A stretch of 64,000 bases of DNA from Candidatus Kerfeldbacteria bacterium (GCA_018500015.2 JAHBAR020000020.1:29981-93980), one strand, 5' to 3'; positions 10,686-60,681 are shown, counted from the first letter of the stretch. The notes: generated by a model not told the origin, from the letters alone. Numbers and translations: made by a program.

Positions 10686-10691
10686 ACACGT

Positions 10692-18186: not shown

Positions 18187-18200
18187 ACTGTACCGTGTAT

Positions 18201-18824: not shown

Positions 18825-18842
18825 AGATATAGTGTACTGAGA

Positions 18843-21358: not shown

Positions 21359-21362
21359 AAGC

Positions 21363-21812
21363 GCTCGTTTGCGTATACCAACATGATGTGTAAGCCGAAT
21401 TCTGTTAGCGCCACATCTCAGCAGCGCTATGATAATCATCTCTCTGTGACATGACGTTGCCGCCATGCTCAAGCCCATACTCAGGTTGCACTACACAGGG
21501 TTTACCACTGCTTCCATTCACATGGAGCACTCACGCATAGCTTCCACACTGCGTGACTTTTCACCTTTCTCCGTTTTGCAACGGATAGTATTGTCTCTGT
21601 GACACTTTCCCTCGCGTTTTCATCATCACAGCACGCCATGCAGACATATGTTCTTCATGGCGCACCATCCGATAATTGTGCGGGTTGCCGTTAGCAACTG
21701 TGTTTGTCGTTCTTGGAAAGCCAAGAATTCGAGTGTTCGGACTTTCCTCTGCCCTCTGTTTTTCAACATCATTGCAGCGATTATCCCATCAATTGTATAT
21801 ACGCAAACGAAC
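21363..21812 (-). ncRNA. rnpB: RNase P RNA (bacterial type A)
   Basis: The minus strand contains AGAGGAAAGTCCGAACAC (P4 5' strand) and ACAGAATTCGGCTTACA (P4 3' strand). It also has GGTAAACCC and GCTTGAGC blocks. A 13-bp P1 forms between TCGTTTGCGTATA (5') and TATACGCAAACGA (3'). Ends are good to about 5 nt. Confidence 0.88.
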
Positions 21813-41186: not shown

Positions 41187-41206
41187 CTTCCAATAGGAAG
41201 TTATTT
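41181..41206. terminator. Bidirectional hairpin terminator (copy 1 of a twin hairpin)
   Basis: AAATAACTTCC-AATA-GGAAGTTATTT flanked by A- and T-runs. Its arms contain the stop codons of both convergent genes. Confidence 0.6.
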
Positions 41207-44148: not shown

Positions 44149-44177
44149 AATATATGAAAAAATCAGAATTATGTCAA
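44149..44177 (-). promoter_or_regulatory. Consensus sigma70 promoter for rplJ-rplL
   Basis: Minus strand reads TTGACA, a 17-nt spacer, then TATATT. The -35 box overlaps the stop codon of the upstream GT-C gene. Confidence 0.6.
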
Positions 44178-46285
44178 GAAGCGGGCAGTTGTACACACTT
44201 TTCAACAGAGTCAACCGGCTCACCAATTGGAATATCAACAAAAAGATCAGGTGAAATAGAACGAATATCAGAACGCACATACCGACAACTTGCAAATACT
44301 TTTGAAGAGGTAATAAAACGTTTTTCACCTTGTGTAACAACAAATAATTTGCTATCACCCTCTTTTTGAATAAGGAAGCTTTGCTTAAAGCTATCTGGGA
44401 AGCCAGCTTTCTTGAGTCGTTTGTTTATCTGCCGACGCAACACTTCTTCAGAGATAAATTGCGCCGTCTTATTGCTCATATCAAACCGGTACACCTCAAG
44501 CCCTGTGGAAGAGAGCTCGTCAACTGGACGAGCGACACTCAGCACATACTCTTTCACGGCGGGCTTTGCACGCGACAACTCCTTTGGCCATACAATCCAT
44601 CCTGAATGCCGTCTAAACAACAACGCCTCCATCTTTGCCGGTGTCTCCAACACTTTTGGCTTATTGCGATGCATATCGATAATGGTGTGCGCGGTGTCTT
44701 CACCCCAATAAAAATTGCGAAACGAAACAACCAGCAACGATTCATCGTCGCTCATGTGTTCACGCACATACGCATACGCCGTTTTGTAATCGATCGACTG
44801 AACACTATCAGCCACCGCAGCGTTAAACACGCTTACAGAGGGCACACGTGGGATAGACACCGGGACGCATAACAGCGCAACAACACATGCCCACGCGACT
44901 GTCGGCTGCAAACGCTTCATGTTCAAGCCGCGCACCAGATCACGCGCAGTGATAACGACAAAAGGGATAATCAACAGACTCACGAGGGCAAAATATCGAC
45001 GAGCAGGAAAGGAGCTGAGTACAAAAATATAAATCAAGAACAGTGAGGCAGATGTGCTCCCCATAAAACGCATGGTCATGCTTTTGCGAAACATACATAG
45101 TAGACCGATGACATACAGCGCAATAGCTAAACCAAAAATCGGAAAATCAAAAAAACCATAGAGCTCGTAAATAGGATTACGATACGCAACATGAATCACG
45201 CGCCACGGAATGTAGCGGTAAAACTGATCAACAACAAGCATCCCAACACTCAAGAGCAGCGCAGCAATCATAGCCCATGTCATAGGTGCAACAGACGGCG
45301 AAAAAAAGCTCCGGTGTTTTGCGTATTGCACAATCCACTCAACAATAACAAAAAGGAGGAACCCCGGTATGAATACCAAACAAATAATTTGCAGGTGCAT
45401 TGAGGCAATATAGAACGGAATGGTCACAAGGCTCCAGAAAAAAAACTTTCCGTGCTGGCGAAGAGTGTATGCACGGAATGCCAGATACACACATACCAGC
45501 GTTACACCAAAAATTAAAAAAAACGGTTCATACATGCGCGTTAGCGCTCCGAGTTGAATAAAGGTGTTTGAAAAGACCAGTGTGAATGCAACAAGTGCGG
45601 CTGTCACCCTATCCTTCAACCACGCACGCATAACCAGATACATACCAATCACCAACAAGATGAATGAAACAATTGCCGGCAAACGCGCACTCAGCTCAGA
45701 AATACCAAAAAGATTCATTGATTGCGCAATAATCCACGTATATCCCCATGCCCGAGTGTATTCCCACACCTGTCCATTGGCGCCCACAAACGGTTTACTT
45801 GTTGAAAAATCATAGTGTACAAACTCGCCGGTTTTTATATACCCTACTGCACTTTCAAATTGAAAAATTTCATCACCATCAATCGACATTGACCCGGCGT
45901 ACCATACGCTCATAATAGCAACGGCGATCAAAGCAATAATAATCAATGCGTCTTTCCACACTCGAGCGTCGGGTTGTTTTTTTTCGACTAACACCGGATC
46001 CTGCCTCATGAGCACAACAGCGGCAAGACAGACAGCACCAAGAACAAGAGGAAGACGCACATCAGAAAGGGAGAAACCGTCGATTTGTCCAAAGTGGAAT
46101 ACCCGCCCAACAATAAGAATACCGAGCGCGCCAATCAACACTTCGCGTGCATATGAACGATGACGTATTTTTTGAAGCACCCACAGCAATACTCCTGCGA
46201 TGAGGGCATATACACACAACGAAAAAAATGGATCGCCAAAAATGAGTGGGTTAATGTTCAGAAAATCATGGAACCACGCAAACAT
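44174..46285 (-). CDS. Large polytopic membrane protein, putative GT-C fold glycosyltransferase (ArnT/PMT-like)
   Basis: 703 aa. A multi-TM N-terminal region of about 480 aa carries an acidic first-loop motif, IDGDEIFQFESAVGY. A soluble C-terminal domain of about 200 aa follows. Confidence 0.5.
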   Translation of the reverse strand: MFAWFHDFLNINPLIFGDPFFSLCVYALIAGVLLWVLQKIRHRSYAREVLIGALGILIVGRVFHFGQIDGFSLSDVRLPLVLGAVCLAAVVLMRQDPVLVEKKQPDARVWKDALIIIALIAVAIMSVWYAGSMSIDGDEIFQFESAVGYIKTGEFVHYDFSTSKPFVGANGQVWEYTRAWGYTWIIAQSMNLFGISELSARLPAIVSFILLVIGMYLVMRAWLKDRVTAALVAFTLVFSNTFIQLGALTRMYEPFFLIFGVTLVCVYLAFRAYTLRQHGKFFFWSLVTIPFYIASMHLQIICLVFIPGFLLFVIVEWIVQYAKHRSFFSPSVAPMTWAMIAALLLSVGMLVVDQFYRYIPWRVIHVAYRNPIYELYGFFDFPIFGLAIALYVIGLLCMFRKSMTMRFMGSTSASLFLIYIFVLSSFPARRYFALVSLLIIPFVVITARDLVRGLNMKRLQPTVAWACVVALLCVPVSIPRVPSVSVFNAAVADSVQSIDYKTAYAYVREHMSDDESLLVVSFRNFYWGEDTAHTIIDMHRNKPKVLETPAKMEALLFRRHSGWIVWPKELSRAKPAVKEYVLSVARPVDELSSTGLEVYRFDMSNKTAQFISEEVLRRQINKRLKKAGFPDSFKQSFLIQKEGDSKLFVVTQGEKRFITSSKVFASCRYVRSDIRSISPDLFVDIPIGEPVDSVEKCVQLPAS

Positions 46286-46352
46286 ACTGCTACAGTATAA
46301 AAGCGATTACCGCTCTAGGCAACCGCTTCGCATTCATGATAGGATGCGACAT

Positions 46353-46937
46353 ATGAAAAAATGCTTTTTCTCAATATTACCTGCGCTTTTAATAGTGTTC
46401 GTTCCTGTAACCGCTTCAGCGCATATTGTTGCCAGCAACGATTTAACCAGCGGCTTCACTCACCCACTCTTTGGAATTGACCACCTTCTTGCTATGGTCG
46501 CGGTTGGAGTGCTTAGCATGCTGCTTGGAATTGCACGCGTATGGCAGCTGCCAGCCATCTTTGTCGGCTTCATGATCCTTGGTGGCATCACAGGCATCAA
46601 CGCACTTCCAATCATTGGCGTTGAACAGAGCATTGCGCTGTCAGTGATCTTCTTTGGCTTACTCATTGCCCGCTCTCAACATATGCCGTACGTACTCGCA
46701 CTCTGCACAACTGCGCTGTTTGGCTTTATGCACGGCTATGCACACGGAGCTGAAATGCCGATTGTCGCACAGCCGGTATTTTTTTCATTTGGTTTTGTGC
46801 TTTCAACATTGCTGCTGCACATCAGTGGCGTGCTGATTGGTAAAATGAGCTTGCGTTCACAAATCACACACACCATTCTTCGATTGGGCGGCGGGGGCAT
46901 GACGATTGCAGGCATGCTTTTTCTTTTTGCTCTATAA
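46353..46937 (+). CDS. hupE: HupE/UreJ-family nickel (cobalt) permease
   Basis: Start at MKKCFFSILPALLIVFVPVTASAHI (signal peptide). Signature HPLFGIDHLLAMVAVG, 6 TM segments. Confidence 0.75.
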   Translation: MKKCFFSILPALLIVFVPVTASAHIVASNDLTSGFTHPLFGIDHLLAMVAVGVLSMLLGIARVWQLPAIFVGFMILGGITGINALPIIGVEQSIALSVIFFGLLIARSQHMPYVLALCTTALFGFMHGYAHGAEMPIVAQPVFFSFGFVLSTLLLHISGVLIGKMSLRSQITHTILRLGGGGMTIAGMLFLFAL

Positions 46938-46943
46938 AAAAGA

Positions 46944-47762
46944 ATGCAACACACTCAAGACAAGCTTATACAATTACAAGAAATGCTGCGCTCGATGGGC
47001 ACAGTACTTGTTGCCTTTTCTGGCGGTGTCGACAGCACACTGCTTGCCAAGGTTGCACACGATGTATTAGGTGACAAAGCAATTGCGATCATCGCGCAAT
47101 CTGAGACCTATACCAAATCTGAGATGACTGAAGCGCTCAACGTGGCCAAAATCATCGGCATTCACACCGAAACCATCCACACAGAAGAAGTGTCAGACCC
47201 ACGGTATAAAAAAAATCCGGTGAATCGCTGCTACTATTGCAAAAGCGAACTGTTCACCAAATTAAAAGCGTACGCGAAACAGCACAACTTCACATATATA
47301 GTCGAAGGCACAAACGCCTCGGACAAAGATGATTATCGCCCCGGCAAAAAAGCGATCATCGAAAGCGCCGTCAACAGTCCGCTCAAAGATGTTGGCCTTA
47401 ATAAAGATGAAATTCGCGAACTGCTGAAAGGCTATGGCATTCCAAACTGGAACAAACCATCCAATGCCTGCCTTGCTTCACGCTTCCCATATGCAACCGA
47501 AATCACTCCAGAAAAATTAGCGACGGTTGAAAAAGCAGAAATTTTCATCAAACAATTTGGCATTGATCAACTTCGCGTTCGCTATCATGATAAAGTTGCG
47601 CGCATTGAAGTGCCAGAGGAATATATGGACACAATTCTTGCACACAGAAAAGAAATTTTCGATCACTTTAAACACCTCGGCTTCGCGTACACCGCGCTTG
47701 ATCTCAAAGGGTATCGCACCGGCTCACTCAATGAAACAATTGTATGGAAAAAGAAAGAATAA
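46944..47762 (+). CDS. larE: LarE, PP-loop ATP-dependent sulfur transferase of nickel-pincer cofactor synthesis
   Basis: PP-loop VAFSGGVDSTLLA, CYYCK (Cys96, Cys99) and SNACLASRFPY (Cys176). Confidence 0.85.
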   Translation: MQHTQDKLIQLQEMLRSMGTVLVAFSGGVDSTLLAKVAHDVLGDKAIAIIAQSETYTKSEMTEALNVAKIIGIHTETIHTEEVSDPRYKKNPVNRCYYCKSELFTKLKAYAKQHNFTYIVEGTNASDKDDYRPGKKAIIESAVNSPLKDVGLNKDEIRELLKGYGIPNWNKPSNACLASRFPYATEITPEKLATVEKAEIFIKQFGIDQLRVRYHDKVARIEVPEEYMDTILAHRKEIFDHFKHLGFAYTALDLKGYRTGSLNETIVWKKKE

Positions 47763-48493
47763 TCGAAACACTCAACAACTACAAAGAGAAAAAAATTAAT
47801 TTGAACGAAGCACTCAATGAGCTGCGTGATCTTCCATTTGAAAATCTCGACTTTGCAAAAATAGATCATCATCGCACACTGCGCAACGGATACCCGGAGG
47901 TGATTTATTGCAAAGGCAAAACCATTCCGCAAATTGTCGCCATCTTCGCCCACCTTCGTGAAAAGTCTTCAAACATCATGCTCACTAAAGCATCGCGCGA
48001 GGTCTACGAAGCGTTGAAAGTGATCGACAAAAAAGTGGAATTCAACGAACTTGCTGGATGCATTGCGCTCAAACGTCGCAAAAATAAAAAGAAAGGCACT
48101 ATCCTCATTGTTGCTGCTGGCACTGCCGACCTCCCTGTTGCCGAAGAAGCAAAGTTTACCGCTGAGTTCATGGGAGTCACTGTCGACACTGTGTATGACG
48201 TTGGTGTTGCGGGACTTCCGCGCTTGCTCGCATCAAAAGAAAAAATCTTCAGCGCAAAATGCATTATCGCAATTGCCGGCATGGACGGTGCGTGCGTGCC
48301 AACAACCGCAGGCCTCGCAAAATGTCCAATCATTGGAGTGCCCACATCCACAGGCTATGGTGCAAATCTCGACGGACTCGCCCCACTCCTCACCATGCTC
48401 AACTCCTGCGCGCCGGGTGTCTCGGTGATGAATATCGACAACGGATTTGGGGCAGGATACTTGGCCGCTATCATAGTCCAACAATCTAAATAA
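47744..48493 (+). CDS. larB: LarB, NaAD carboxylase/hydrolase of nickel-pincer cofactor synthesis
   Basis: DFAKIDHHRTLRNGYPEVIYCKGKTIPQI, followed by the PurE-like VAAGTADLPVAEEA...AIAGMDGA. It overlaps larE by 19 nt. Confidence 0.85.
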   Translation: MEKERIIETLNNYKEKKINLNEALNELRDLPFENLDFAKIDHHRTLRNGYPEVIYCKGKTIPQIVAIFAHLREKSSNIMLTKASREVYEALKVIDKKVEFNELAGCIALKRRKNKKKGTILIVAAGTADLPVAEEAKFTAEFMGVTVDTVYDVGVAGLPRLLASKEKIFSAKCIIAIAGMDGACVPTTAGLAKCPIIGVPTSTGYGANLDGLAPLLTMLNSCAPGVSVMNIDNGFGAGYLAAIIVQQSK

Positions 48494-48635
48494 ACACATA
48501 AATGGCACACTGCTTGTCGTTCGCTTTCGCGCTACTCGACGTACCAGAAAGTACGCCTCGGTCGCGCTCAAGCTTCACGACTTCGCATTGCGCTCATTTC
48601 TGAGTTTATTCCTCAAGTATGATAAAATATTGTGT

Positions 48636-49841
48636 ATGAAAAGATTATTGATCGACGCACGCTCAGGAATTTCTGGCGATATGTTCTCCGGTGCTTTGTT
48701 AGGTTTGCTCGATGACGATGCGTTTGTTATTCGTGAGCTCAAAAAACTCAAGCTCAACGAATTCAAAATTGAAACGCGCTGGGTCGAAAAAAAAGGTGTA
48801 CGTGCAAAAAAATTTGATGTGATTCTCTATGATCATCATCACGACGATCATGGACACGAACAGGGACATAACCACTCTCATTCACATGTGCACAATCGCA
48901 ATCTCAGCGACATCACACATATCATAGATGGCAGCATGCTTTCTCCTGCTGTGAAAAATTTGAGCAAAAAAATATTTTTAACGCTTGGAAAAGCAGAAGC
49001 GAAAGCGCACGCTGTCCCACTCAATGAAGTGCACTTTCATGAAGTTGGTGCTATTGATTCAATAGTCGACATTGTAAGCGCTGCTATTCTCATTACTAAG
49101 CTCGGTATCACTGAATATGCTGTTGCCAACCTCACCGAAGGCACGGGTGCAGTGCATATTGACCACGGTGAAGTTACGCTTCCTGTTCCTGCTGTGCGTG
49201 AACTGCTCAAAAACGTACCACTTTCACGTGTACGCGTTGCCAAAGAACTCATCACACCAACTGGCGCTGCAATTCTTAAAACCATGAAGATGAAGTTTGT
49301 TGACTCAGTTGATATGGAAGGGACGAAAATTTCCTACGGTGCTGGTACACGCGATCTCGATTTTCCAAACGTGCTCAAAGTGGCAATTGCGGCCGACACA
49401 CACCACGATCGCAAAATGTTGATCGAGACACACATCGACGACATGACTCCTGAGATGATTCCACACATCGTCGATGCACTTCTCACGCGCGGCGCTATCG
49501 ACGCATTTGCTCAACCACTCGTGATGAAAAAAAATCGCGTTGGCGTTTTACTTTCTGTGCTCTGTGAAGCAGCGCGCGTTGACTCTCTCGTAGAAGCGAT
49601 CTTCGAAGAGACATCGACATTCGGTATGCGCGTGCGACCAATCGATCGCGTGATTCTCAAACGCACAATGAAAAATCTTAAAACGCCTTATGGTTCGGTT
49701 CCAATAAAAATTGGCAGCTACAATGGCAAGCGCATGAATGCAAAGGCAGAATCAGATGTAGCGGCAAAAATTGCGAAAGACAAACACATTCCATTAAAAG
49801 AAGTCTACGCTGCAATCAATTCAGCGCTCAATCGAGATTGA
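48636..49841 (+). CDS. larC: LarC, nickel-inserting cyclometallase
   Basis: Start at MKRLLIDARSGISGDMFSGALLGL. His-rich HHHDDHGHEQGHNHSHSHVH. It is a single uninterrupted ORF. Confidence 0.85.
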   Translation: MKRLLIDARSGISGDMFSGALLGLLDDDAFVIRELKKLKLNEFKIETRWVEKKGVRAKKFDVILYDHHHDDHGHEQGHNHSHSHVHNRNLSDITHIIDGSMLSPAVKNLSKKIFLTLGKAEAKAHAVPLNEVHFHEVGAIDSIVDIVSAAILITKLGITEYAVANLTEGTGAVHIDHGEVTLPVPAVRELLKNVPLSRVRVAKELITPTGAAILKTMKMKFVDSVDMEGTKISYGAGTRDLDFPNVLKVAIAADTHHDRKMLIETHIDDMTPEMIPHIVDALLTRGAIDAFAQPLVMKKNRVGVLLSVLCEAARVDSLVEAIFEETSTFGMRVRPIDRVILKRTMKNLKTPYGSVPIKIGSYNGKRMNAKAESDVAAKIAKDKHIPLKEVYAAINSALNRD

Positions 49842-49894
49842 TTATTCGCGGTATTTCTTGTATACTCGTGAGCAGCTTTTTGCTCTATTTTTGT

Positions 49895-51241
49895 ATGCTC
49901 AACTGGCGCAAACCTATCATTTACCTCTTTTTTTGGAAAGATACTCACATCTTGCGATATTTGCGTGAACTCACACCAATTCAATTTTGGCCGCGCAATG
50001 AAATCAAAAAATTGCAGAACGAAAAATTGCAGATGCTTTTACAGCATGCTTACGATCACGTGCCGTATTATCACGATCTGTTTGAAAAATTAGGCATCGT
50101 TGCTGACGGGAAAGTTGATGCGTCACAATTTTCCAAAATTCCACCACTCACCAAAGATGTTATTCGCGAGCAAAAAGAGCGCTTATATGCCGACGATAAA
50201 GAAACACGCGACTTTTATAAAAACACATCTGGCGGCTCAACCGGCGTGCCAGTAGAGTTTGTGCAAGATTCCACGTATCGCGACATGTCGTGGGCGAATA
50301 AAATTATGTACAACCGCATGGTCGGCAAAGACGATGGCATGCGCGAAGTCAAACTCTGGGGCTCTGAACGCGATATTTTTCAAGGTTCAGAAAGTTTCCG
50401 CGCGCGCTTACAACACTTTTTGTACAACCGCATGTTGCTCAACAGCTTCCGCATGTCGGAAAGCAAAATGGGTGAATATGTCGAACGCATTAACACATTC
50501 AAACCAGTGCTGCTCTGGTCATACATCGACTCTGCATACGAACTTGCACGCTATATAAAAACACATAACCTCAAGGTCCACGCCCCAAAAGCCATCTTAG
50601 TGACAGCCGGCACAGTGTATCCAGAAATCAAAGAGTACATTTCCAAAGCATTCAACGCGCCGGTCTACAACCAATATGGCTCACGCGAAGCTGGCGACAT
50701 GGCATGCGAATGCCCAGAGCGGAACGGGCTACATGTATTTGAATATCTGTATGTTTTTGAAATTCTTGATGAAAAATTACAATCGGTTGCACCCGGTGTT
50801 ATTGGTGATATTTACGTTACGTTGCTCATGAATTCTTCAATGCCTCTTATTCGCTATCGTATTGGCGACACTGCGTCATGGAAAGAAGATGCTGCGTGTG
50901 GATGTGGACGCAATTTGCCACGCATAAACGATGTGCATGGTCGCATCACTGATCACTTCCGCAGAGCCGATGGCACTGTTATTCACGGTGAATACTTCAC
51001 TCACCTCTTTTATTTCCGTCCGTGGATCAAAAAATTCCAGGTTATTCAAAATGATCACACACACGTCACTTGTTTGATCGTCAAAAACAGCCAAGAAAAT
51101 CATGCTGACGTGGGCGACATTGCGGACAAAATCAAACTCGTGATGGGCAATGAATGCGAAGTCACTTTTCAATATGTTGATGACATCGCGCCCAGTGGAT
51201 CGGGTAAATACTTGTACACAAAAAGCTTGATTGCTGCGTAA
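49895..51241 (+). CDS. Adenylate-forming ligase of the PaaK/CapK/F390-synthetase family
   Basis: NTSGGSTGVPVEF (AMP-binding core), plus YNQYGSREAG and RYRIGD. Start taken at MLNWRK; the tracked TTG start is less likely. Confidence 0.7.
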   Translation: MLNWRKPIIYLFFWKDTHILRYLRELTPIQFWPRNEIKKLQNEKLQMLLQHAYDHVPYYHDLFEKLGIVADGKVDASQFSKIPPLTKDVIREQKERLYADDKETRDFYKNTSGGSTGVPVEFVQDSTYRDMSWANKIMYNRMVGKDDGMREVKLWGSERDIFQGSESFRARLQHFLYNRMLLNSFRMSESKMGEYVERINTFKPVLLWSYIDSAYELARYIKTHNLKVHAPKAILVTAGTVYPEIKEYISKAFNAPVYNQYGSREAGDMACECPERNGLHVFEYLYVFEILDEKLQSVAPGVIGDIYVTLLMNSSMPLIRYRIGDTASWKEDAACGCGRNLPRINDVHGRITDHFRRADGTVIHGEYFTHLFYFRPWIKKFQVIQNDHTHVTCLIVKNSQENHADVGDIADKIKLVMGNECEVTFQYVDDIAPSGSGKYLYTKSLIAA

Positions 51242-51246
51242 AAAGT

Positions 51247-52590
51247 ATGTCTCTGTCCTCTGTCTTTAACTCCGAACGAATCGAAAGCGGTCTTCAAAAA
51301 ATACTTCTTATAGGGTATTCAAAAATTCTAAAAAAAGAACCGAGCGAAAAAATCAAAAACTTTTTCACCAACTTTGGGTATCTTGCACTCGCTGAATTAA
51401 TCGGTAGCGTCATCGGCTTTCCAATTAAAATTCTTGTTGGGCGCTTTTTGGGCCCTGAGGAGTATGGTAAATACGCCCTCATTCTCAACCTTACTCAATT
51501 TTTTATCATTCCAATGCTTTTGGGATTTTCGACCGCAGTACTTCAATACCTTCCTTCACACCCCGAAAAAAAATCCCGCATTATGACAATTGTGTTTGCT
51601 TGTACTATTGTCACCACCGGTTTTTTTACTCTCTTCTTTTTATTGACACCACATATTTGGACAAGCCTATTTAATGTTTCGCGAGACATTTTTATATGGA
51701 CTATTGCGTATAGCATTATCTATGTTTTTTATTATGTACTTGAAGCATTTCAACGCGGATCACATCGCTTCTTTCTTCTCTTTTGGATTACCATTCTCAA
51801 CTCTTCAGTGTTGCTTATCACATTTTTAATTTTCTTATTTGGCTTTCATCAAGAAACATATCAAACCTTTATCACCGCTAACATTGTTGCCTTTGCCTCT
51901 TCGTGCGTAGTCTTTCTGTACTTTTTTTTCTTCAAGGACAAGCCTGACTACACGCCTGATGCGCAACTGACAAAAAAAATACTCAGCTACTCGGGGTTGG
52001 CAACACTCGGCGGCATTACAGGGTTCATTATAGGTAATACAGATCGTCTATTTTTGAATCATTACGCCTCGCTGTACTGGGTTGGTGTATATGCTGCATA
52101 CACAAATGCAAGCACATTTCTGATTGGCAGATTTTTTCAACTCTTTTTAAATGTATATTTTCCTACTGTTGCTAAAGAAAAAGATAAGAGTGCTGTTATA
52201 CACTCTGTACAACGCATGTATCGATTTGCAGTTATTCCAATTTTTATTGTTTCCGTTCTTTCCATTTGGGGTGTCATGTTACTATTTGGCAACGCCTTTC
52301 CTATTTTACCGCATTTCATTTTGCTTTTTTCATTTAACAACTGCTTGATGGTGCTCTATCAACTACAGATGTGGCTCTTCAACGCTCAAGGAAACCGCGG
52401 TATGAAGACAACGTCGCGGATACTCATCTTCAATGCTGTGTTGAATATTATTCTCTACTTTTTCCTCATTCAGTGGTGGGGCGTGGTTGGTGCCTTGTTC
52501 TCTGCAACAATCACCTACACTATTTTTATTCTCTACTATCGTAATCGAGTGCGTCATTTTATTGCTCGTGGATATTTTAACGAAGCCTAA
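51247..52590 (+). CDS. Oligosaccharide flippase (Wzx/MOP family)
   Basis: 447 aa with about 12 TM segments. The N-terminus FGYLALAELIGSVIGFPIKILVGRFLGPEEYGKYA is typical of Polysacc_synt. Confidence 0.65.
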   Translation: MSLSSVFNSERIESGLQKILLIGYSKILKKEPSEKIKNFFTNFGYLALAELIGSVIGFPIKILVGRFLGPEEYGKYALILNLTQFFIIPMLLGFSTAVLQYLPSHPEKKSRIMTIVFACTIVTTGFFTLFFLLTPHIWTSLFNVSRDIFIWTIAYSIIYVFYYVLEAFQRGSHRFFLLFWITILNSSVLLITFLIFLFGFHQETYQTFITANIVAFASSCVVFLYFFFFKDKPDYTPDAQLTKKILSYSGLATLGGITGFIIGNTDRLFLNHYASLYWVGVYAAYTNASTFLIGRFFQLFLNVYFPTVAKEKDKSAVIHSVQRMYRFAVIPIFIVSVLSIWGVMLLFGNAFPILPHFILLFSFNNCLMVLYQLQMWLFNAQGNRGMKTTSRILIFNAVLNIILYFFLIQWWGVVGALFSATITYTIFILYYRNRVRHFIARGYFNEA

Positions 52591-52597
52591 AAAATGT

Positions 52598-53725
52598 ATG
52601 AAGATCTGTATCATCAGCTTAGGAAGTTATCCGCTCTTTAATCCCACATGCACACGCACATTCGGTGGATCTGAAGTGCAATTGTTTGTACTTGCACAAG
52701 AGTTGGCAAAAAATCCTAACATCGATCTCCATTTTATTGTTGGCGATTTTGGACAAGAAAAAGTTGAAAAGTACGGACGCATCACTGTCTACAAAGGCAT
52801 CCCAGTCAAACGACACTCAAAAGTCGCTCGCTTTTTACCACGAAGCAAAGTGCTGCTCTTTAACTTGATGCGCAAAATTCAAGCTGATATATATATTCAA
52901 CGCTCTGCGAGCGCTGGCACAGGGCTCATTGCCCTCCTCGCTCACTTTTGGCGCAAAAAATTTGTGTACATGACTGCGCATGAAATAGATTGCAACGGTG
53001 GATTTGAACAACAAAATAGCTGGCTCGCGGGCAAACTTTTTCAATTCGGCATTCGTAGTGCAGACTTAGTAGTAACTCAATCACAAGAGCATGCGCAGAT
53101 GATCACAGCGCACCATCGTCGCAGTAGTATTGTCATTCCATCGCTCTATGCAATTGCGCCTGAGAGTGCGTTTGAACATATAGAAAAAACATACACGCTT
53201 TGGGTTGGTCGTTGCGAAGATTGGAAACGTCCGGAAATTTTTATTGAACTTGCACACCGCCATCCTGAACAAGAGTTTGTAATGATCTCGCCTGAGTCAA
53301 ACAATCAAAGTGACTACTACATTGAAATCAAAAAACAACTTGAACACGCACCAAAAAATTTGCGCCACGTCACCTATGTTCCGTTTGCAGAAATCGACGA
53401 ATACTTCAAACACGCAAAGCTTTTTATCAACACCTCTTCATACGAGGGCTTCCCAAATACATTTGTGCAAGCCATGAAAAACCAAACGCCAATTCTTTCC
53501 CTTGTCGTCAATCCAGACCAGATGCTTGAACATGCAGGCTGTGGCGCTTCCGCACACAATGACACCGAGCAATTCTACGCTCTTGCAAAAAAATACCTGA
53601 GCACTCCTGCTCTTCTATCTAAATGTGGACAAGCTGGCTATCGCTATGCAAAAGAAATACATGATAGTCACAAAATTACACAGCAATACACAGAGCTATT
53701 TGAAGATTTGATACAAAAACGTTAG
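52598..53725 (+). CDS. Glycosyltransferase family 4
   Basis: Start at MKICIISLGSYPL...GGSEVQ. C-terminal SSYEGFPNTFVQAMKNQTPILS. Confidence 0.75.
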   Translation: MKICIISLGSYPLFNPTCTRTFGGSEVQLFVLAQELAKNPNIDLHFIVGDFGQEKVEKYGRITVYKGIPVKRHSKVARFLPRSKVLLFNLMRKIQADIYIQRSASAGTGLIALLAHFWRKKFVYMTAHEIDCNGGFEQQNSWLAGKLFQFGIRSADLVVTQSQEHAQMITAHHRRSSIVIPSLYAIAPESAFEHIEKTYTLWVGRCEDWKRPEIFIELAHRHPEQEFVMISPESNNQSDYYIEIKKQLEHAPKNLRHVTYVPFAEIDEYFKHAKLFINTSSYEGFPNTFVQAMKNQTPILSLVVNPDQMLEHAGCGASAHNDTEQFYALAKKYLSTPALLSKCGQAGYRYAKEIHDSHKITQQYTELFEDLIQKR

Positions 53726-53736
53726 GATATGCTGAT

Positions 53737-55374
53737 ATGAATGAACAACGCGTTGCGGTCATTGAACAAAATACACCAGCATATCCAAAAGCACCTTTTT
53801 CTCCTGCTAAAATCTTTCCTGAACTTAACTCTCCAGCGCTTACATTTTTAAAAAACGAGACACTTGATGAAAGTAATGAAGTATATACATCAGTGCGTGA
53901 GCTTTTTATTAAGCTTGAAATGGACAAAGAGCATATTGGCACACCTGACTGGGAACCATTTCGCGAAATGATCAAGCCAGGTCAACACGCTGTACTCAAA
54001 GCAAATTTTGTTAAAGGTAATCATCCGCTCAATGAAGTAGGCATCACAAGCATGATCACTCACGCTTCGGTGATGCGCGCAGTCATCGATTACCTCCTAC
54101 TTTCAACAAATGGCAATTGTAAAATCACCATTTGCGATGTCGCCCTTCAAAGTTCTGTATGGGAAGAAATTATTGAAGGCTCAGGCACCAAGGCGCTTGT
54201 GGAATTCTATGCACAACACGGCATTCAGATTAACCTACTTGATCTGCGTCGTGAAATTTCACACCTCAATGATCAATTCGTTATCGACAGTCGCGATTTT
54301 GCTGATCGTGATCCATTAGGATACGCAGCAGTTGATCTTGGCAAGCAAAGCGCACTCATGCCAATCATACACAAGTACAAGCGCTTCATGATCACTGATT
54401 ATGGTCGAGGCACAGTTCCAGAACATCATAATCCAGAAAAAAATGAATACTGCATCGCCAAAACAATTTTAAGCGCAGATTTATTTATCAATTTGCCAAA
54501 ACTGAAAAGTCACCGCAAAACAGGTCTCACTTGTGCGCTCAAGAATCTTATCGGCATGAACGGCGACAAACGTTGGATTGCTCACCACACCGAACGCTCA
54601 AAAGGTTTGGGCGGCGATGAATTCCCCAAGTACGTGCTCCGGAACTGGTTTGAATTTCGGCTGTTCAGTTTCCTCAAACGCAACGGCAAGATGGGTATTT
54701 GGGCCGCTTCTCAAATTCGCAAAAACCATACACGCGCATACAAAATCAAAAACCAACTATTTGGACTGTTTGGTATTGACCGTACAAAAAAAGGTACGTC
54801 AACTCAAACGAATACTGCCGCATGTGAAACATATGTACCTCCAGAACGCATCTACCACATCTCGTACGATGCATTTCTAAAAACCTTTCCCGGCAGCTCC
54901 CGCGAAGTATTTCAAGAACTCAACCCTGTAGCTTCACGCCCAATGGAAGGGAGTTGGTATGGCAACGACACTCTGTGGCGCACAGTTTCTGACTTAAATC
55001 ACATCATCTTCTTTGCAGACAAAAACGGAGAGCTCCGTGAAACTGTGCAACGCAACTATTTCTGCATTGTTGATGGCATTATTGGAGGAGAAAAAGAGGC
55101 TCCAATGGAGCATACGCCAAAATTTACCGCAACACTTGTTGGCGGCACTCACCCTCTTGCCATTGACTTTGGTTGCGCGCGCATCATGGATTTTGATTAC
55201 AACAAAATTCCCATGATTAAAAATTTATTTGAACAAAAAGTAAATTTTTCACACCTCACTCCTGATCAGATTGAGTTGGTATCAAATAGATCTGAGCTCC
55301 CACATTTTCATTTCCGTCCTGCGCGCAACTGGAAAGGACACATTGAGACCGATCCACGCTGGTGGGCTGACTAA
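53737..55374 (+). CDS. DUF362-domain protein (long form, 545 aa)
   Basis: HAVLKANFVKGNHP, SMITHASVMRAV and LPKLKSHRKTGLTCALKNLIGMNG resemble the DUF362 family pattern as I remember it. It is the last gene of the lar-containing operon. Confidence 0.6.
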   Translation: MNEQRVAVIEQNTPAYPKAPFSPAKIFPELNSPALTFLKNETLDESNEVYTSVRELFIKLEMDKEHIGTPDWEPFREMIKPGQHAVLKANFVKGNHPLNEVGITSMITHASVMRAVIDYLLLSTNGNCKITICDVALQSSVWEEIIEGSGTKALVEFYAQHGIQINLLDLRREISHLNDQFVIDSRDFADRDPLGYAAVDLGKQSALMPIIHKYKRFMITDYGRGTVPEHHNPEKNEYCIAKTILSADLFINLPKLKSHRKTGLTCALKNLIGMNGDKRWIAHHTERSKGLGGDEFPKYVLRNWFEFRLFSFLKRNGKMGIWAASQIRKNHTRAYKIKNQLFGLFGIDRTKKGTSTQTNTAACETYVPPERIYHISYDAFLKTFPGSSREVFQELNPVASRPMEGSWYGNDTLWRTVSDLNHIIFFADKNGELRETVQRNYFCIVDGIIGGEKEAPMEHTPKFTATLVGGTHPLAIDFGCARIMDFDYNKIPMIKNLFEQKVNFSHLTPDQIELVSNRSELPHFHFRPARNWKGHIETDPRWWAD

Positions 55375-57572
55375 TTTTTCTTGTACAGCTTTATTGCATC
55401 TTCACCTTTTGTAAGCGTGAGCGTATTGATGTCCAATACTGAGTATGTTGCTGTGATACTTATAACATCAGAAAAAGAAATTTTTGCGCCGTCTTGTGCA
55501 GTATAACTGAATTGATATGCGAGTTGTTGTGCACTATCCGTCCGCGGAGGGACAAACAATACAACAGTATTGAGAGGGGTTTTTTGTTTATCTGATAAAC
55601 GAATTGTGGGATGAAGAACAACAAATACGCCCTTGGTATTTTGCATGAGCGAGCGTATATTCATCTCACCTGTTATCTCGTGATCGTTATCAACAAACAC
55701 CTTTGTGCTACGCAACCATGCGAGATTATCTATCACACTCCCTCCATCAAAATTGTTAAACTTATCATCATTAAGATGTTGTTTTCCTCGAACAGGTATA
55801 AGATTCCATTCATAGAGCATGAGATTGTCAACACTACGCTCAGGTTCAAGCGTCCACGCCTCATTAACAAATTCACGCACAACGCAGTCAGGCATTTCGG
55901 GCAATGTGCAATCCCATCTTTTTTGACGATACTCATCAGCCAAAAACCATGCGTGCGGATATGTACTTAAATCTGTAAAAAAAGATGTAGCCACCTCTTT
56001 TCTATCTTTTAAATTTCCATCCTCATCTTGCATGTATACAGCGTGAATGTTATCAGAAGTATTCTGCATAACATTCCAGATGCCTACATTATAAGAAAAC
56101 AGTCCATCATCTGGTTGTACAGTGATTGTTCGCAAGGCTTCGGCGTATGGATAATACAACTCATAAATTTGATCTTCACCTGAGCTTTGAGCATGCAGTA
56201 ATTCACGAAGATGCCCATATGGAATACACGCTAAGGTAAACATACTGCACCACACAAAAAAAACTGTGTGCGGCTTCATACGAGAAAATAGGCGTTGAGT
56301 TACAGTTGTCGCAATACGTGCATACACCCACACACCAATTGCGAAACATACTGTAATCAAAGGCAATACATGGTATCCATAACGAGGGCTAAAATAACGA
56401 TCAAAAAACCACAATTCAATAGCCGAAAACGCTGCCACGCCAACAACATATGCATATCGCGATGAAGAAAAAGCATAGACACACGCAACTGCAATAGCAA
56501 GCCCAATACCATAAAAAAATGCGGGCTGAGGAAGTTGATTGGTCAAAAATTGATAATACCCGCGCTCTTCAACGATCAATGCCTGAATATCAATATTGAA
56601 GGTAAATGCGTTGCGCAGTTGTCCAAGAAGATGAGGCATGCTCACAAGCACTACACAGCTCACACATACAAAAAGTAAAAAGAGAATAACAGAAGGGTCT
56701 CGAAGCGCTAGAGACGCATGTCCTTGACGCAGATTTTTGATACAGATATACACAACACGAACTAACAGCATGCCGCCTAAAATGGGTACATAGCCGAGAG
56801 TAAGCGAATGTACGGATACGGATAGCGAAAAAATGGCGATGCACGCGGCGCAAGCAGCCAGATAGGCCCTAACACGGAAACGCTCTGAGTAGATTGGTGG
56901 GGATGAAAATAGACGATATACAGCAAAAAGCAAGACCACGATCAATAGTTGCAACAGGTCATACATCCGGACATAGTGCGACATGATGATCGACCATGGA
57001 GAAAGGGCCAAAAAAAGGGCGACCATAAGCGCAATGCTCTGAGAAAAATATTTTTTAACAATCCATGTACACACAAAAAGCGTAACAATATTGATGCATA
57101 GATTCATCACCATACCTACTGTTGTGCTTTGCCCAAATATTCCTTGAGAAATAGCAAGCAACGCTGTGTACACAATTCCACGAGAGTATTCAGGGAAGCT
57201 GCCATGAAGCATCTGTTGTGCAGCTAAAAAATGATAAAAAGAATCAACAGGAAGCACTCCAATCGGCAACACCCATACACGTATACTCACAGCAAGTACA
57301 ACAATACTTGCAAACACTGCATAGAAAAAAAGTGAGGGTGTTTTTTTGGTGAGCTGGGGGGCTGAAGTATTTCGAAGTGCAACGTAACCCAAAATAACGC
57401 CCGCGCCGCCAAATATCATTGGCACATATGCAGGGAGGATAAAAGACGCATATGAGAATACGAGCGCAGCAATGCCGACCAACACTACACCAATGCGCGC
57501 CAGTGTGGACACAAAAGAAGCAGAACGAACGTTATCAGTGCGATGTATCATGCAATTGTATTTTAGACTCAA
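55371..57572 (-). CDS. Large polytopic membrane protein, putative GT-C fold glycosyltransferase
   Basis: 733 aa with about 14 TM segments. First-loop motif LPVDSFYHFLAAQ. A soluble C-terminal domain of about 250 aa follows. The start may be MIHRTDN at 57551. Confidence 0.45.
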   Translation of the reverse strand: MSLKYNCMIHRTDNVRSASFVSTLARIGVVLVGIAALVFSYASFILPAYVPMIFGGAGVILGYVALRNTSAPQLTKKTPSLFFYAVFASIVVLAVSIRVWVLPIGVLPVDSFYHFLAAQQMLHGSFPEYSRGIVYTALLAISQGIFGQSTTVGMVMNLCINIVTLFVCTWIVKKYFSQSIALMVALFLALSPWSIIMSHYVRMYDLLQLLIVVLLFAVYRLFSSPPIYSERFRVRAYLAACAACIAIFSLSVSVHSLTLGYVPILGGMLLVRVVYICIKNLRQGHASLALRDPSVILFLLFVCVSCVVLVSMPHLLGQLRNAFTFNIDIQALIVEERGYYQFLTNQLPQPAFFYGIGLAIAVACVYAFSSSRYAYVVGVAAFSAIELWFFDRYFSPRYGYHVLPLITVCFAIGVWVYARIATTVTQRLFSRMKPHTVFFVWCSMFTLACIPYGHLRELLHAQSSGEDQIYELYYPYAEALRTITVQPDDGLFSYNVGIWNVMQNTSDNIHAVYMQDEDGNLKDRKEVATSFFTDLSTYPHAWFLADEYRQKRWDCTLPEMPDCVVREFVNEAWTLEPERSVDNLMLYEWNLIPVRGKQHLNDDKFNNFDGGSVIDNLAWLRSTKVFVDNDHEITGEMNIRSLMQNTKGVFVVLHPTIRLSDKQKTPLNTVVLFVPPRTDSAQQLAYQFSYTAQDGAKISFSDVISITATYSVLDINTLTLTKGEDAIKLYKKN

Positions 57573-57586
57573 AGGCTAGTATAGCA

Positions 57587-58714
57587 CTATTTGCTTTGAA
57601 ACACCCGCGCATAGAGGGCTTTAGTGTGCTTTGTCACCTCCTCCCATCCCATTGACAATGCATACTCACGATTTTTTTTCTTCATCTCCTCCAACTCTTG
57701 TGGGTGTGTGTATGTATATTCCAAAAATGAATAAATACTTTCTGAATCGCGCTTGGGAATGATTTTACCACCAGCAACCAAATATTGCGCATCACCTGTG
57801 TTTGTGGCAAGCACCGCGAGCCCCGAGCTCATCGCTTCTAACAAAGAGTTACTCATCCCTTCATTCATTGAAGGGAGCACAAATACATCAGACTCATGAT
57901 ACAGCTCAAGCATTTTTTCATGAGGCACCGCGCCAAAGAATGTGATTGCCTCAACAGCATTGGTATCTTGAGAAAATGATTTTAGTTGCTCCATGTCCTC
58001 ACCTTCACCAGCAATATACAAACGAGAATGAGGGTATTGTGAATGAAAACGCCCAAACCCTTCGATTAAATAGCGAATGCCTTTACGCTCAACAAGGCGC
58101 GATGTAGAAATAACAGTAAATGGTCGATCAGAACGCTCTTGCGGAACAAAGTCTTGTGTGTAGACACCATTGCGCAACACTTCAATATTTTGCTCTGGCG
58201 CAACACGCAAGGCCAACTCTTTCAAACCTTCTGATGTTGATGTCACAGCTACAGCATCTTTCCAAATGCGCTTGCTCAGGTGTGCAAAAAAAAGTATGTC
58301 CAGCCAAAAGTACTTTTTATTATAAAATGGCACATCGCTTCCACGCAAGCTGACAATGTAAGGTAATCGTAATTTACGTGCGATGTATCCACATGGAATG
58401 CCAAAGTAGGCATGTACACCATCGTAGACATGCTGCGCTCGTAACTTTTTGGCTTTAGCATATGCCGCAAAACTGTACCACAACAGGTCAATATTAGACT
58501 GCTTATGCAAGGAGCCGCGTTTGTGAATATTGACGTAGTAAATTGTGATGCGATCGCTAAAATGCTCAACACGATCAGCGCCAATAGATGAGGTGACTAC
58601 GTCAATGGTCGTCTCCGAGTTGGTGCGACGAAACTCTTTGAGAATCTGCAATGTTGCATTTGCAGCACCACCGCCAAGTGGAGGAAATTCATAATTCAAC
58701 AAAAGTAACCGCAT
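57587..58714 (-). CDS. Glycosyltransferase family 4
   Basis: Start at MRLLLLNYEFPPLGGGAANAT. C-terminal NEGMSNSLLEAMSSGLAVLATNTGD. Confidence 0.8.
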   Translation of the reverse strand: MRLLLLNYEFPPLGGGAANATLQILKEFRRTNSETTIDVVTSSIGADRVEHFSDRITIYYVNIHKRGSLHKQSNIDLLWYSFAAYAKAKKLRAQHVYDGVHAYFGIPCGYIARKLRLPYIVSLRGSDVPFYNKKYFWLDILFFAHLSKRIWKDAVAVTSTSEGLKELALRVAPEQNIEVLRNGVYTQDFVPQERSDRPFTVISTSRLVERKGIRYLIEGFGRFHSQYPHSRLYIAGEGEDMEQLKSFSQDTNAVEAITFFGAVPHEKMLELYHESDVFVLPSMNEGMSNSLLEAMSSGLAVLATNTGDAQYLVAGGKIIPKRDSESIYSFLEYTYTHPQELEEMKKKNREYALSMGWEEVTKHTKALYARVFQSK

Positions 58715-58801
58715 ATCGACTTGTAGGATACCACACCTCTTCAAATCACGAAACGATTGACAATGTCATGAAAAAATAGGATAGTATGTGGCGAAATACA
58801 T

Positions 58802-59752
58802 ATGCGCATTCTTGTCACCGGCGTCGCCGGATTTATTGGATCTCACCTCACGGACCGCCTACTCGAGCTTGGACACGAGGTTATTGGTATTGATAATTTC
58901 AACGACTACTACAACCCTCTCTATAAAGAAGAGAATATCGCGACGGCTCTCAAACATCCAAAATTCACACTCCATCGCGTTGACATCTGCGACCAAGCAG
59001 AGGTTGAACGGATTGTTCAAACACAACACATCGATACTGTTATTCATTTAGCGGCGCAAGCAGGGGTTCGTATTTCCATTCAACAACCGATGCGTGCATA
59101 CAAAAATAACGTCGAAGGAACACTCGTCGTGTTCGAAGCGGCACGCAAAGCTGGCATTCACGACATCATCTACGCATCATCTTCATCTGTGTACGGCAAT
59201 CAACCTACTGCTCCATTCTCAGAAACCCTGAATGTCGACAACCCAATCTCCCCATACGCTGCAACCAAAAAAGCAAATGAGCTGTTGGCCCACACGTATC
59301 ATCATCTCTACAAAATGAATATGACTGGTTTGCGCTTTTTTACGGTGTATGGAGAGCGTGGTCGACCAGATATGTCGCCATACCTGTTTGCTGATGCGAT
59401 TGTACACGACCGTCCAATTGCGAAGTTCGGTGATGGTACAAGCTTGCGTGATTTTACCTATGTTGCCGACATTGTCTCGGGTATTGTTGCGTGTATGCAA
59501 AAAAATCTTGGCTATCAAATTTTCAACCTTGGAAACTCACAGCCGATTACTCTCAATGCATACATCGCAACCTTTGAGCGTGTCACTGCAAAAAAAGCAC
59601 TCATCGATCAAAAGCCCATGCAGCCGGGCGATGTATTCATGACTGCCGCAGACACAGCTAAAGCACAATCAATGCTCGGGTGGCACCCAACGACCTCACT
59701 TGAGCAAGGCCTTACACGATTCATTCAATGGTTTAAGATACACCGTCTATGA
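58802..59752 (+). CDS. NAD-dependent UDP-glucuronate 4-epimerase-like SDR (CapI/LpsL-type)
   Basis: MRILVTGVAGFIGSHL...IDNFNDYYNP...SSSSVYG...YAATKKANELLAHTYHHLY...GLRFFTVYGERGRPDM. Confidence 0.75.
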   Translation: MRILVTGVAGFIGSHLTDRLLELGHEVIGIDNFNDYYNPLYKEENIATALKHPKFTLHRVDICDQAEVERIVQTQHIDTVIHLAAQAGVRISIQQPMRAYKNNVEGTLVVFEAARKAGIHDIIYASSSSVYGNQPTAPFSETLNVDNPISPYAATKKANELLAHTYHHLYKMNMTGLRFFTVYGERGRPDMSPYLFADAIVHDRPIAKFGDGTSLRDFTYVADIVSGIVACMQKNLGYQIFNLGNSQPITLNAYIATFERVTAKKALIDQKPMQPGDVFMTAADTAKAQSMLGWHPTTSLEQGLTRFIQWFKIHRL

Positions 59753-60678
59753 AATATTCCGTCATCGTCCCTGTCTACAATGAAGAAGCAAACATTGCTT
59801 CGCTGCATCGCGATATTGTTTCAACAATGGAAAAACTCCATGCACCGTTTGAAATTATTTTTATCAACGATGGAAGTTCTGATAATACACAAAAAGTACT
59901 CGAGACACTCTCTCCTGTGACAGTGATTACGATGCGTAAAAATTTTGGACAAACTGCGGCGATGGACGCGGGCATCAAGCAAGCCACAGGCGAAATTATT
60001 ATCACGCTTGATGGCGATGGACAAAATCCTCCATCCGAAATTCCAAAATTGCTCGAGGTCATGGAGCACAAAGGAGTTGATATTGTTTCTGGGTGGCGAA
60101 AAAAACGTCGCGATCCATTTCTGAAACGCTTTGTGTCACGCGGCGCATATGGATTACGCAGCATCTTTGTCAAAGATCAAATTCATGACTCCGGCTGCTC
60201 ACTGAAAGCATATAAACGCTTCTGTTTTGACGGGATTGATTTGTATGGCGAAATGCATCGTTTCATCCCTGCAATGTTGAGTTGGTCTGGCTTTACCGTA
60301 TCCGAAGTACCCATTGAACATCGTGAGCGTGTGCATGGTGTCTCAAAGTACAATTGGCGACGCGTCATTAAAGGCTTTATTGATATGCTCTTTATCTGGT
60401 TCTGGCGCAAATACGCCGCTCGTCCACTCCACCTTCTTGGTATGCTCAGCATTGTCTTAGGCACTGGCGGCATCGCTCTCGCTCTGTGGGTATTCATACG
60501 ACGCGTCATTCTTCAGATCTCTCTTGCAAACAGCACCATGCCTATGATCAGCCTATTCTGCATTGTTCTTGCTGGTCAATTTTTTGTCTCAGGCTTAATT
60601 TTAGATGTTGTGATGAAGCAATATTACGGTAACAGCAACAAACGCTACTACTCCATTCGCTCAGTAACTCAACGATAA
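59749..60678 (+). CDS. GT2 polyprenyl-phosphate glycosyltransferase (ArnC/GtrB/DPM1-like)
   Basis: YSVIVPVYNEEANI...IIFINDGSSDNT...ITLDGDGQNPP, plus two C-terminal TM helices. Confidence 0.8.
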   Translation: MKYSVIVPVYNEEANIASLHRDIVSTMEKLHAPFEIIFINDGSSDNTQKVLETLSPVTVITMRKNFGQTAAMDAGIKQATGEIIITLDGDGQNPPSEIPKLLEVMEHKGVDIVSGWRKKRRDPFLKRFVSRGAYGLRSIFVKDQIHDSGCSLKAYKRFCFDGIDLYGEMHRFIPAMLSWSGFTVSEVPIEHRERVHGVSKYNWRRVIKGFIDMLFIWFWRKYAARPLHLLGMLSIVLGTGGIALALWVFIRRVILQISLANSTMPMISLFCIVLAGQFFVSGLILDVVMKQYYGNSNKRYYSIRSVTQR

Positions 60679-60681
60679 TCC

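Follow-up and report, generated by a model that had tools for sequence, protein, structure and literature searches.

The gene array

We analysed a 64,000-nt stretch of a metagenome-assembled genome (MAG) of Candidatus Kerfeldbacteria (Patescibacteria; candidate phyla radiation, CPR), which is referred to below as the window. The subject of the analysis is an array of eight plus-strand genes at positions 46353-55374, identified by Pfam and NCBIfam as hupE, larE, larB, larC, a PaaK/CapK-type ligase gene, wzx, a family 4 glycosyltransferase (GT4) gene, and a gene for a DUF362 protein (Table 1). [quoted passage not shown] An earlier note on this DNA had named the same eight genes and described their junctions, and both descriptions held up. 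The gene identities were recovered with the Pfam and NCBIfam profiles, and the junctions read from the sequence are, in order, a 6-nt gap, a 19-nt overlap (larE/larB), and gaps of 142, 53, 5, 7, and 11 nt, with the two longest gaps on either side of larC. The start of the GT4 gene was corrected from the sequence to the ATG at 52598. The DUF362 protein and LarC are identical to the NCBI entries MCW1930179.1 and MCW1930175.1, respectively, from a 98.7-kb contig.

The NPN biosynthesis set is complete, as LarE, LarB, and both halves of LarC exceed their NCBIfam equivalog cut-offs (LarC1, 185 against 90; LarC2, 137 against 50). LarC also carries a His-rich stretch. In LarE, the cysteines C96, C99, and C176 form a CxxC...C motif beside SGGVDS. 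This motif defines the [4Fe-4S]-dependent LarE proteins, such as that of T. maritima (PMC9283937), and suggests that the window LarE belongs to the catalytic [4Fe-4S]-dependent subtype, despite its NCBIfam label of "sacrificial". HupE starts with an N-terminal signal sequence followed by a His (MKKCFF...ASAH), and nickel transport by this permease is predicted.

Among the remaining products, the ligase was tested as PaaK proper and rejected, as it scored 70 against a cut-off of 646 for the NCBIfam PaaK family TIGR02155 and 126.7 against 300 for the DVU_1553 family. Homologues of the ligase carry the CapK_C domain (PF27533), and the ligase is a PaaK-like adenylate-forming enzyme of the CapK_C type, other than PaaK itself. 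The DUF362 protein has no signal peptide.

Table 1. Coordinates of the array and its flanking features in the 64,000-nt window
Feature	Coordinates	Strand	Assignment and evidence
Divergent upstream gene	44174..46285	-	Membrane protein of 703 aa with weak similarity to PMT (GT-C glycosyltransferase); Pfam PMT match below cut-off, E 7e-4
hupE	46353..46937	+	HupE/UreJ-type nickel permease; HupE_UreJ PF04955, 156.9 bits against cut-off 23
larE	46944..47762	+	PP-loop sulfur insertase; TIGR00268, 334 bits against cut-off 150
larB	47744..48493	+	Nicotinic acid adenine dinucleotide (NaAD) carboxylase/hydrolase; NF033503, 268 bits against cut-off 175
larB-larC spacer	48494..48635		142 nt
larC	48636..49841	+	CTP-dependent nickel insertase, LarC1 and LarC2 fused; PF01969, 416 bits
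Conserved block GGTATTTCTTGTATACT	49850..49866	+	Lies between larC and the ligase gene (53-nt spacer); similar to an extended -10 element (TGTATACT)
PaaK/CapK-type adenylate-forming ligase	49895..51241	+	Closest solved structure phenylacetate-CoA ligase PDB 4r1l, E 2.9e-26
wzx-type (MOP family) glycan flippase	51247..52590	+	Polysacc_synt PF01943, 85.7 bits against 28.2
GT4 glycosyltransferase	52598..53725	+	Glycos_transf_1 PF00534, 53 bits against 26.4
Long-type DUF362 protein, 545 aa	53737..55374	+	PF04015, 84.1 bits against gathering cut-off 24
Codons for H259, K269, H283	54511..54585	+	Placed with the PF04015 ruler (see text)
Rest of the glycan locus	55371..63809	mixed	By Pfam: 733-aa protein of unknown function (-), GT4 (-), short-chain dehydrogenase/reductase (SDR) epimerase/dehydratase (+), family 2 glycosyltransferase, GT2 (+), 703-aa protein of unknown function (+), LPG_synthase_TM (+)

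The DUF362 protein as a relative of LarA

The earlier note had also stated that the window encodes no LarA. As a statement about canonical LarA this stands, although it is misleading, as the eighth gene of the array encodes a protein of the LarA clan. A tblastn search of the window with LarA_Lp (the query is identical to PDB 5HUQ_A) gave no significant match, and its best match (E=1, not significant) falls within the DUF362 gene, at 54433-54591. A LarA hidden Markov model (HMM) had zero matches among all 409 six-frame open reading frames (ORFs) of at least 60 aa in the window. Lar_N and LarA_C were absent from the 38 large ORFs scanned with Pfam, and the 10 kb past the right end of the window contained glycan genes only. 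No canonical LarA (Lar_N/LarA_C) was found in the ~74 kb examined.

DUF362 (PF04015) and DUF2088/Lar_N share the Pfam clan CL0471, and the LarA literature treats DUF362 solely as a phylogenetic outgroup (PMC11770544). The kinship can also be seen from the LarA side: a genuine LarA (P0125, 90% identical to LarA_Lp) cross-matches PF04015 with 25.8 bits (E 1.3e-5), above the gathering cut-off. At an E-value limit of 10, the window DUF362 protein matched PF04015 alone, and neither Lar_N (PF09861) nor LarA_C (PF21113) was matched. By these profile matches, the window protein is outside the LarA superfamily proper and is a member of DUF362 within the clan of LarA.

The PF04015 HMM was used as a ruler for residue positions because the direct profile-profile comparison was not significant and the LarA profile was low in diversity, with all retrieved LarA homologues at least 77% identical. 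The curated HMM was scanned with fragments ending or beginning at the residues of interest, so that the equivalences are those of a sequence alignment and not of coordinates. On this ruler, Lys184 of LarA (the NPN tether) falls at position 121, together with K269 of the window protein, and His200 (the nickel ligand) falls at position 136, together with H283. The catalytic His174 was placed at position 111, with H259 as its counterpart, from the 10-residue His-Lys spacing common to LarA, the window protein, and the profile, and was not read directly. One and the same local alignment, a weak one that pairs DUF362 236-286 with LarA 152-203, was returned by tblastn, hhalign, and hmmsearch, the pairwise hmmsearch alignment having an E of 0.007 at Z=1. 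At the positions of H259, K269, and H283, all 84 proteins derived from loci of diverse phyla have the same residue, as do all 268 sequences of a set that includes 50%-identity representatives. The subfamily comprises 1,130 clusters at 50% identity with E<=1e-30 (7,728 with E<=1e-3) and includes cultured gut and rumen isolates.

The AlphaFold2 model of the full-length DUF362 protein had a pLDDT of 92 and a pTM of 0.92. When it was compared with the PDB by Foldseek, the 11 best matches were all of the LarA family, with E from 3e-4 and probability up to 1.0. A refold of residues 1-300 was tried as a cleaner domain match and set aside, its Foldseek result being worse than that of the full length; the C-terminal strands complete the DUF362 core. 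LarA was not found when PDB sequences were searched with the long-type DUF362 profile (A1). We regard the structural evidence for kinship of DUF362 and LarA, which comes from a predicted model, as supportive but modest. An unknown NPN-dependent enzyme need not be postulated for this locus, as the DUF362 protein is itself a LarA-clan member that retains the Lys and His equivalent to those binding NPN in LarA.

Recurrence of the lar-DUF362 linkage

Two sets of loci were used for comparison: long-type DUF362 loci (a first set of 83, 87 in all) and 80 metagenomic larC loci, 60 of which have at least 1.1 kb upstream of larC. The closest counterpart of the array is L165, an 8.6-kb contig of a close relative, which reads PMT-like gene (minus strand), then hupE, larE, larB, three inserted genes, larC, capK, and wzx. 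Identity to the window proteins is 92% for LarE, 94% for LarB, 79% for LarC, 90% for CapK, and 58% for both HupE and the divergent PMT-like protein, whose gene lies at the same place. After the L165 orthologue, the nearest relatives of the window LarC have ~50% identity or less and include proteins from DPANN archaea (Nanoarchaeia, Woesearchaeota), likewise symbionts with small genomes (P0248, P0255, P0307). On the P0248 contig, larC is solitary among informational genes.

The second context, L169, comes from a more distant Patescibacterium and has GT2, GT4, larC, larE, capK, methyltransferase, wzx, GT4, and DUF362 genes on one strand, larC and larE being its only lar genes within the 10 kb that could be compared. 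Identity to the window proteins is just 29% for LarC and 39% for LarE, against 56% for both CapK and DUF362. Because the identity of the lar products is so far below that of CapK and DUF362, lar genes of a different origin were recruited to the same position in L169. The third context, L061, is from an alphaproteobacterial MAG. Here, within a glycan cluster, UDP-glucose dehydrogenase (UGDH), glycosyltransferase-like, SDR, and methyltransferase genes are followed by larB-larC-larE, and then by genes for a membrane protein rich in His, an ATP-grasp::DUF362 fusion of the TupA type, and two GT8 proteins. The His-rich protein (L061:8281-8943) is a 220-aa multi-pass membrane protein with a PDH motif, a His-rich loop (HRWQHRHGLAHQHH), and zero Pfam matches, and may be a nickel transporter in place of HupE.

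Lar genes recur with genes of the glycan module in L165 (capK and wzx), L169 (capK, wzx, GT4, and DUF362), and L061 (ATP-grasp::DUF362 fusion), a co-occurrence that the earlier note had proposed to look for in related genomes. Its proposal that nickel uptake and NPN synthesis are tied to the glycan module gains comparative support from the same three loci. Most long-type DUF362 loci have no lar genes within 10 kb.

The linkage is also found in a separate branch of the family. In 12 of the 60 metagenomic larC loci, a DUF362 protein of ~306 aa with a twin-arginine translocation (Tat) signal is encoded divergently beside larC-larE-larB, and these proteins are 50-90% identical among themselves. 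LarA is present in just one of the 80 larC loci. One member of the Tat branch (twin-arginine RRRDF) lies at L099:8891-9835 on the minus strand, where it is followed by genes for a 532-aa polyferredoxin and then citrate lyase, with a WbqC-like gene after larB; similar proteins are encoded in L088, L091, L097, L103, L108, L111, L116, L125, L127, L128, and L158. The small lar-adjacent protein of L111 (827-1753, minus strand) has Thr and Tyr in place of the Lys and His equivalent to Lys184 and His200, and may be a non-covalent or degenerate variant. Assignment of the Tat-DUF362 proteins to the Npun_F2552 family was rejected, with scores of 59-77 bits against a cut-off of 500.

The glycan module around DUF362

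In 54 of the 83 loci, the DUF362 gene has a same-strand gene for a CapK-like ligase no more than 300 nt away, and in 62 such a gene is found within 3 kb; in L061 and L035 its place is taken by a TupA-type ATP-grasp ligase gene. Additionally, 46-48 of these loci contain GT4 genes, 28 contain SDR genes, and 14 contain UGDH genes. The partners also occur as single proteins. A Planctomycetota MAG (JAJRYY010000178.1, L032) encodes, in one 1,447-aa ORF (containing 10001-11494), a DUF362 domain, a transmembrane segment, a GT4 domain, and a CapK-like ligase. Further fusions are DUF362-GT4, ATP-grasp-DUF362, and GT2 with ATP-grasp and DUF362 (P0437, P0499, P0443, P0480). These fusions couple DUF362 to the ligase/GT4 module. 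In four high-GC loci (L075, L033, L046, and L072), what looked like long N-terminal "fusions" were discarded as stop-free upstream read-through and not real domains.

The GT4-CapK-DUF362 cassette is also present in a Methanolobus chromosome and in other Patescibacteria, where it is surrounded by glycan genes like those at 55371-63809 of the window. Three Patescibacteria DUF362/CapK loci (L002, L003, and L170, ~2100-5650 and 8989-9921) carry genes for the synthesis of 3'-phosphoadenosine-5'-phosphosulfate (PAPS), namely PAPS_reduct-like, adenosine-5'-phosphosulfate (APS) kinase fusion, and Inositol_P genes, and L170 additionally carries a sulfotransferase gene, which suggests sulfated glycans. 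In L171 (5697-6627), a Patescibacteria locus with no nearby lar genes, genes for an energy-coupling factor (ECF) transporter S-component-like protein and a small phosphoribosyltransferase lie between wzx and capK; they may relate to the uptake of a vitamin or cofactor precursor.

Spacers and transcription

The eight genes share one strand and are separated mostly by short gaps, as expected for a single operon, and a promoter-like block sits between larC and the ligase gene. The array may be co-transcribed as the one operon named in the earlier note, a proposal against which the promoter-like block counts. The block matches L165 at all but one position, and the spacer around it diverges. A promoter scan gave a match at 49838-49866; overall, neither the promoter scan nor the terminator scan gave more matches than shuffled sequence did. 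A hairpin with a T-run at 49870-49894 was considered as a larC terminator and dropped, as it is not conserved in L165. Riboswitches were sought in the 142-nt and 53-nt spacers, and the Rfam search of 45800-55800 gave zero matches.

The collinearity found by blastn places a 2.57-kb insert of three genes (L165:2735-5308) exactly at the 142-nt spacer of the window. The inserted genes encode a 228-aa protein, a 46-aa protein, and a 539-aa M23-peptidase/FG-GAP protein. The difference reflects either an insertion in the L165 lineage or a deletion scar in the window.

Proposed function and alternatives

We favour, with somewhat better than even confidence, the reading that the DUF362 protein is an NPN-dependent enzyme of the conserved ligase and GT4 glycan-tailoring module, supplied by the nickel and NPN genes of the array. 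The array would consist of two parts, a cofactor-supply unit (hupE, larE, larB, and larC) and a glycan-tailoring module (ligase, Wzx, GT4, and DUF362). HupE would import nickel, and LarB, the [4Fe-4S]-type LarE, and LarC would make NPN from NaAD. In the DUF362 protein (545 aa, cytoplasmic), K269 would tether NPN and H283 would ligate its nickel. H259 would act as acid/base, and, by analogy with LarA, transient hydride abstraction at a CH-OH carbon would lead to stereoinversion or oxidation. On this view the substrate bears a carboxylate, such as that of a 2-hydroxyacid substituent or a sugar acid, and the ligase would adenylate and couple this group. The GT4 enzyme would then build the activated unit into a lipid-linked unit, and Wzx would flip this unit across the membrane. 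The chemistry suggested in the earlier note (epimerise, adenylate, flip) is plausible by the same analogy.

Several results weigh against this reading, in which NPN binding by DUF362 proteins is a prediction. The TM-scores of the LarA-family Foldseek matches are low (0.2-0.28), and the model of residues 1-300 had no significant LarA match, with LarAH 9q3j at ranks 2 and 4 (E 0.06-0.09). The hhalign comparison of DUF362 (A1; combined short and long alignment) with LarA_Lp alone or with a 21-sequence LarA alignment was not significant (E 0.12-0.55), and one alignment was unstable; because of this, the residue mapping rests on the Pfam-HMM ruler and weak pairwise alignments. An equivalent of His108, the second catalytic His of LarA, was not found at the corresponding strand end (D134...Q138) of the DUF362 protein. 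H231 is nearly invariant. Some LarA homologues have just one catalytic His and are tied to carbohydrate metabolism (PMC12611868).

The genomic context adds to these points. Of the first 83 subfamily loci, a single one (L061) has lar genes within 10 kb, and of all 87 comparison loci, two do (L061 and L169). Lar genes are absent from the surroundings in the relatives L170 and L171, and long-type DUF362 was found in none of the 80 metagenomic larC loci. Adjacency of lar and DUF362 is the exception among long-type loci, and the proposed link between them was drawn from the comparison of loci. In the window, larC and the ligase gene are separated by the block at 49850-49866, a possible internal promoter. 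Finally, the sequence inspected spans ~74 kb, and a LarA or an NphT-like aldo-keto reductase (AKR) may be encoded in the remaining ~90% of the genome.

The strongest alternative, which we consider unlikely, holds that the lar genes serve another NPN enzyme elsewhere in the genome, either a canonical LarA homologue or an NphT-like AKR, that the adjacency to glycan genes results from genome compaction or shared regulation, and that DUF362 does not bind NPN. It draws on the extent of the inspected sequence, on the many DUF362-subfamily loci without lar genes, on the promoter-like block, and on the existence of a non-LarA NPN enzyme, NphT (PMC13524815). What it leaves unaccounted for is that the linkage appears in three further long-type contexts (L165, L169, and L061) with differing gene orders and lar genes of differing origin, and again in the separate Tat-exported branch, and that the Lys/His triad of LarA is invariant in DUF362.

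It is considerably less probable that another protein of the cluster uses NPN (the SDR, the 733-aa or 703-aa protein of unknown function, or the ligase) and that DUF362 has a different cofactor or none. The SDR gene, 3.4 kb downstream, would fit the remark of the NphT study that enzymes annotated as NAD(P)-dependent and co-occurring with larBCE may bind NPN (PMC13524815); however, its product has the canonical GxxGxxG NAD-binding motif, and SDR genes are found in just the 28 of 83 subfamily loci mentioned above. The two proteins of unknown function are encoded in 4 and 0 of the 83 related loci; the genes beside lar that are common to the window, L061, and L169 are those for the ligase and DUF362.

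Very improbable, and without precedent, is the use of a Lar-pathway intermediate or product (a pyridinium dicarboxylate or dithiocarboxylate nucleotide) as a substrate that the ligase attaches to the glycan in place of cofactor synthesis: a carboxylate-acting ligase does follow larC directly in the window, L165, and L169, and L169 shows only larC and larE, but the nickel permease and the nickel-inserting LarC argue for a finished nickel cofactor, dozens of loci with no lar genes keep the ligase-DUF362 pair, and the conserved tether Lys and nickel-ligand His of DUF362 point to a bound cofactor.

The preferred reading, NPN use by the DUF362 protein of the glycan module, can be extended to DUF362 (PF04015) as a whole. 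We put this forward tentatively, at slightly less than even confidence: DUF362 would be a second large family of NPN enzymes, sister to LarA, with at least two branches. One would be cytoplasmic, linked to ligase and GT4, and act on surface glycans (CPR, methanogens, Planctomycetota, and gut Firmicutes); the other would be Tat-exported, with polyferredoxins.

Other features of the window

About half of the 64-kb window is devoted to glycan assembly. Two more glycan clusters lie at 1695-9972 and 17080-21478 (minus strand). They include another wzx gene (8109-9560), a number of GT4 and GT2 genes, and a gene for a priming transferase of the Bac_transf type (19940-21478). Further minus-strand genes encode a Pro/Gln-rich 305-aa protein with one transmembrane segment (24893-25810), a protein with two GGDEF matches (25837-27639), and a RhuM/Fic-domain protein (41201-42181).

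Comparison with known systems

About 15% of genomes make the NPN cofactor without LarA (PMC11796402), and DUF362, a widespread family, offers a specific candidate for the enzymes that use NPN in larA-less genomes. If the wider proposal for DUF362 is true, the family would account for part of the ~15% of genomes with larBCE and without larA. NPN catalysis would extend to glycan biosynthesis, nickel would be required for building certain cell-surface glycans, and nickel supply would be linked to the structure of the cell envelope. A CPR bacterium with a minimal genome would also be devoting five genes to a single cofactor of a single enzyme. Cultured carriers of DUF362 among the gut and rumen isolates make genetics feasible.

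The nearest known system is the LarA superfamily (DUF2088; LarA_Lp, PDB 5HUQ) of NPN-dependent 2-hydroxyacid racemases and epimerases. It has in common with DUF362 the clan CL0471, equivalents of His174, Lys184, and His200, and the linkage to larB, larC, larE, and a nickel permease, and DUF362 would probably share with it hidden-redox chemistry at a CH-OH carbon. In contrast to LarA, to which it is ~11-15% identical over structurally aligned stretches, the window DUF362 protein has a helical insertion of ~100 residues (about 300-400), and DUF362 is constantly partnered with an ATP-dependent ligase and GT4 in glycan loci. The single-His LarA homologues (PDB 9q3j and 9q2u/9q3k; PMC12611868) also lack one catalytic His, have a proposed role in carbohydrate metabolism, and provided the best LarA-type matches of the 1-300 model; however, they are genuine DUF2088 octamers that are not tied to CapK/GT4 modules.

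Two users of nickel-pincer cofactors outside LarA have been described, the AKR NphT and an ornithine cyclodeaminase with nickel-pincer adenine dinucleotide (NPAD) (PMC13524815). NphT resembles DUF362 in being outside canonical LarA and in having been found by larBCE adjacency in larA-less clusters; it carries a His/Lys motif, and its substrates are sugars. In the same study, covalently attached NPN raised the mass of NphT and of LarA by 450 Da. NphT differs in its TIM-barrel fold, which is unrelated to LarA or DUF362, and it is biochemically proven, whereas DUF362 is a candidate.

The earlier note had regarded a coupling of NPN to a glycan pathway as undescribed, and we likewise found no paper tying DUF362 or glycan assembly to NPN, and none describing Wzx/ligase glycan loci as nickel- or NPN-dependent. 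Such Wzx-dependent loci with PaaK/CapK-like or TupA-like ATP-grasp ligases contain the same flippase, GT4, GT2, SDR, and UGDH genes as the loci studied here, together with a carboxylate-activating ligase. Within DUF362 itself, generic members of PF04015, in which a Tat signal or Fe-S domains are common, share the His-Lys-His positions, and the Tat branch adjoins larC-larE-larB. The generic proteins are exported, have ~300 aa, and are partnered with a polyferredoxin, whereas the window type is a cytoplasmic subfamily of 480-560 aa with a ligase and GT4.

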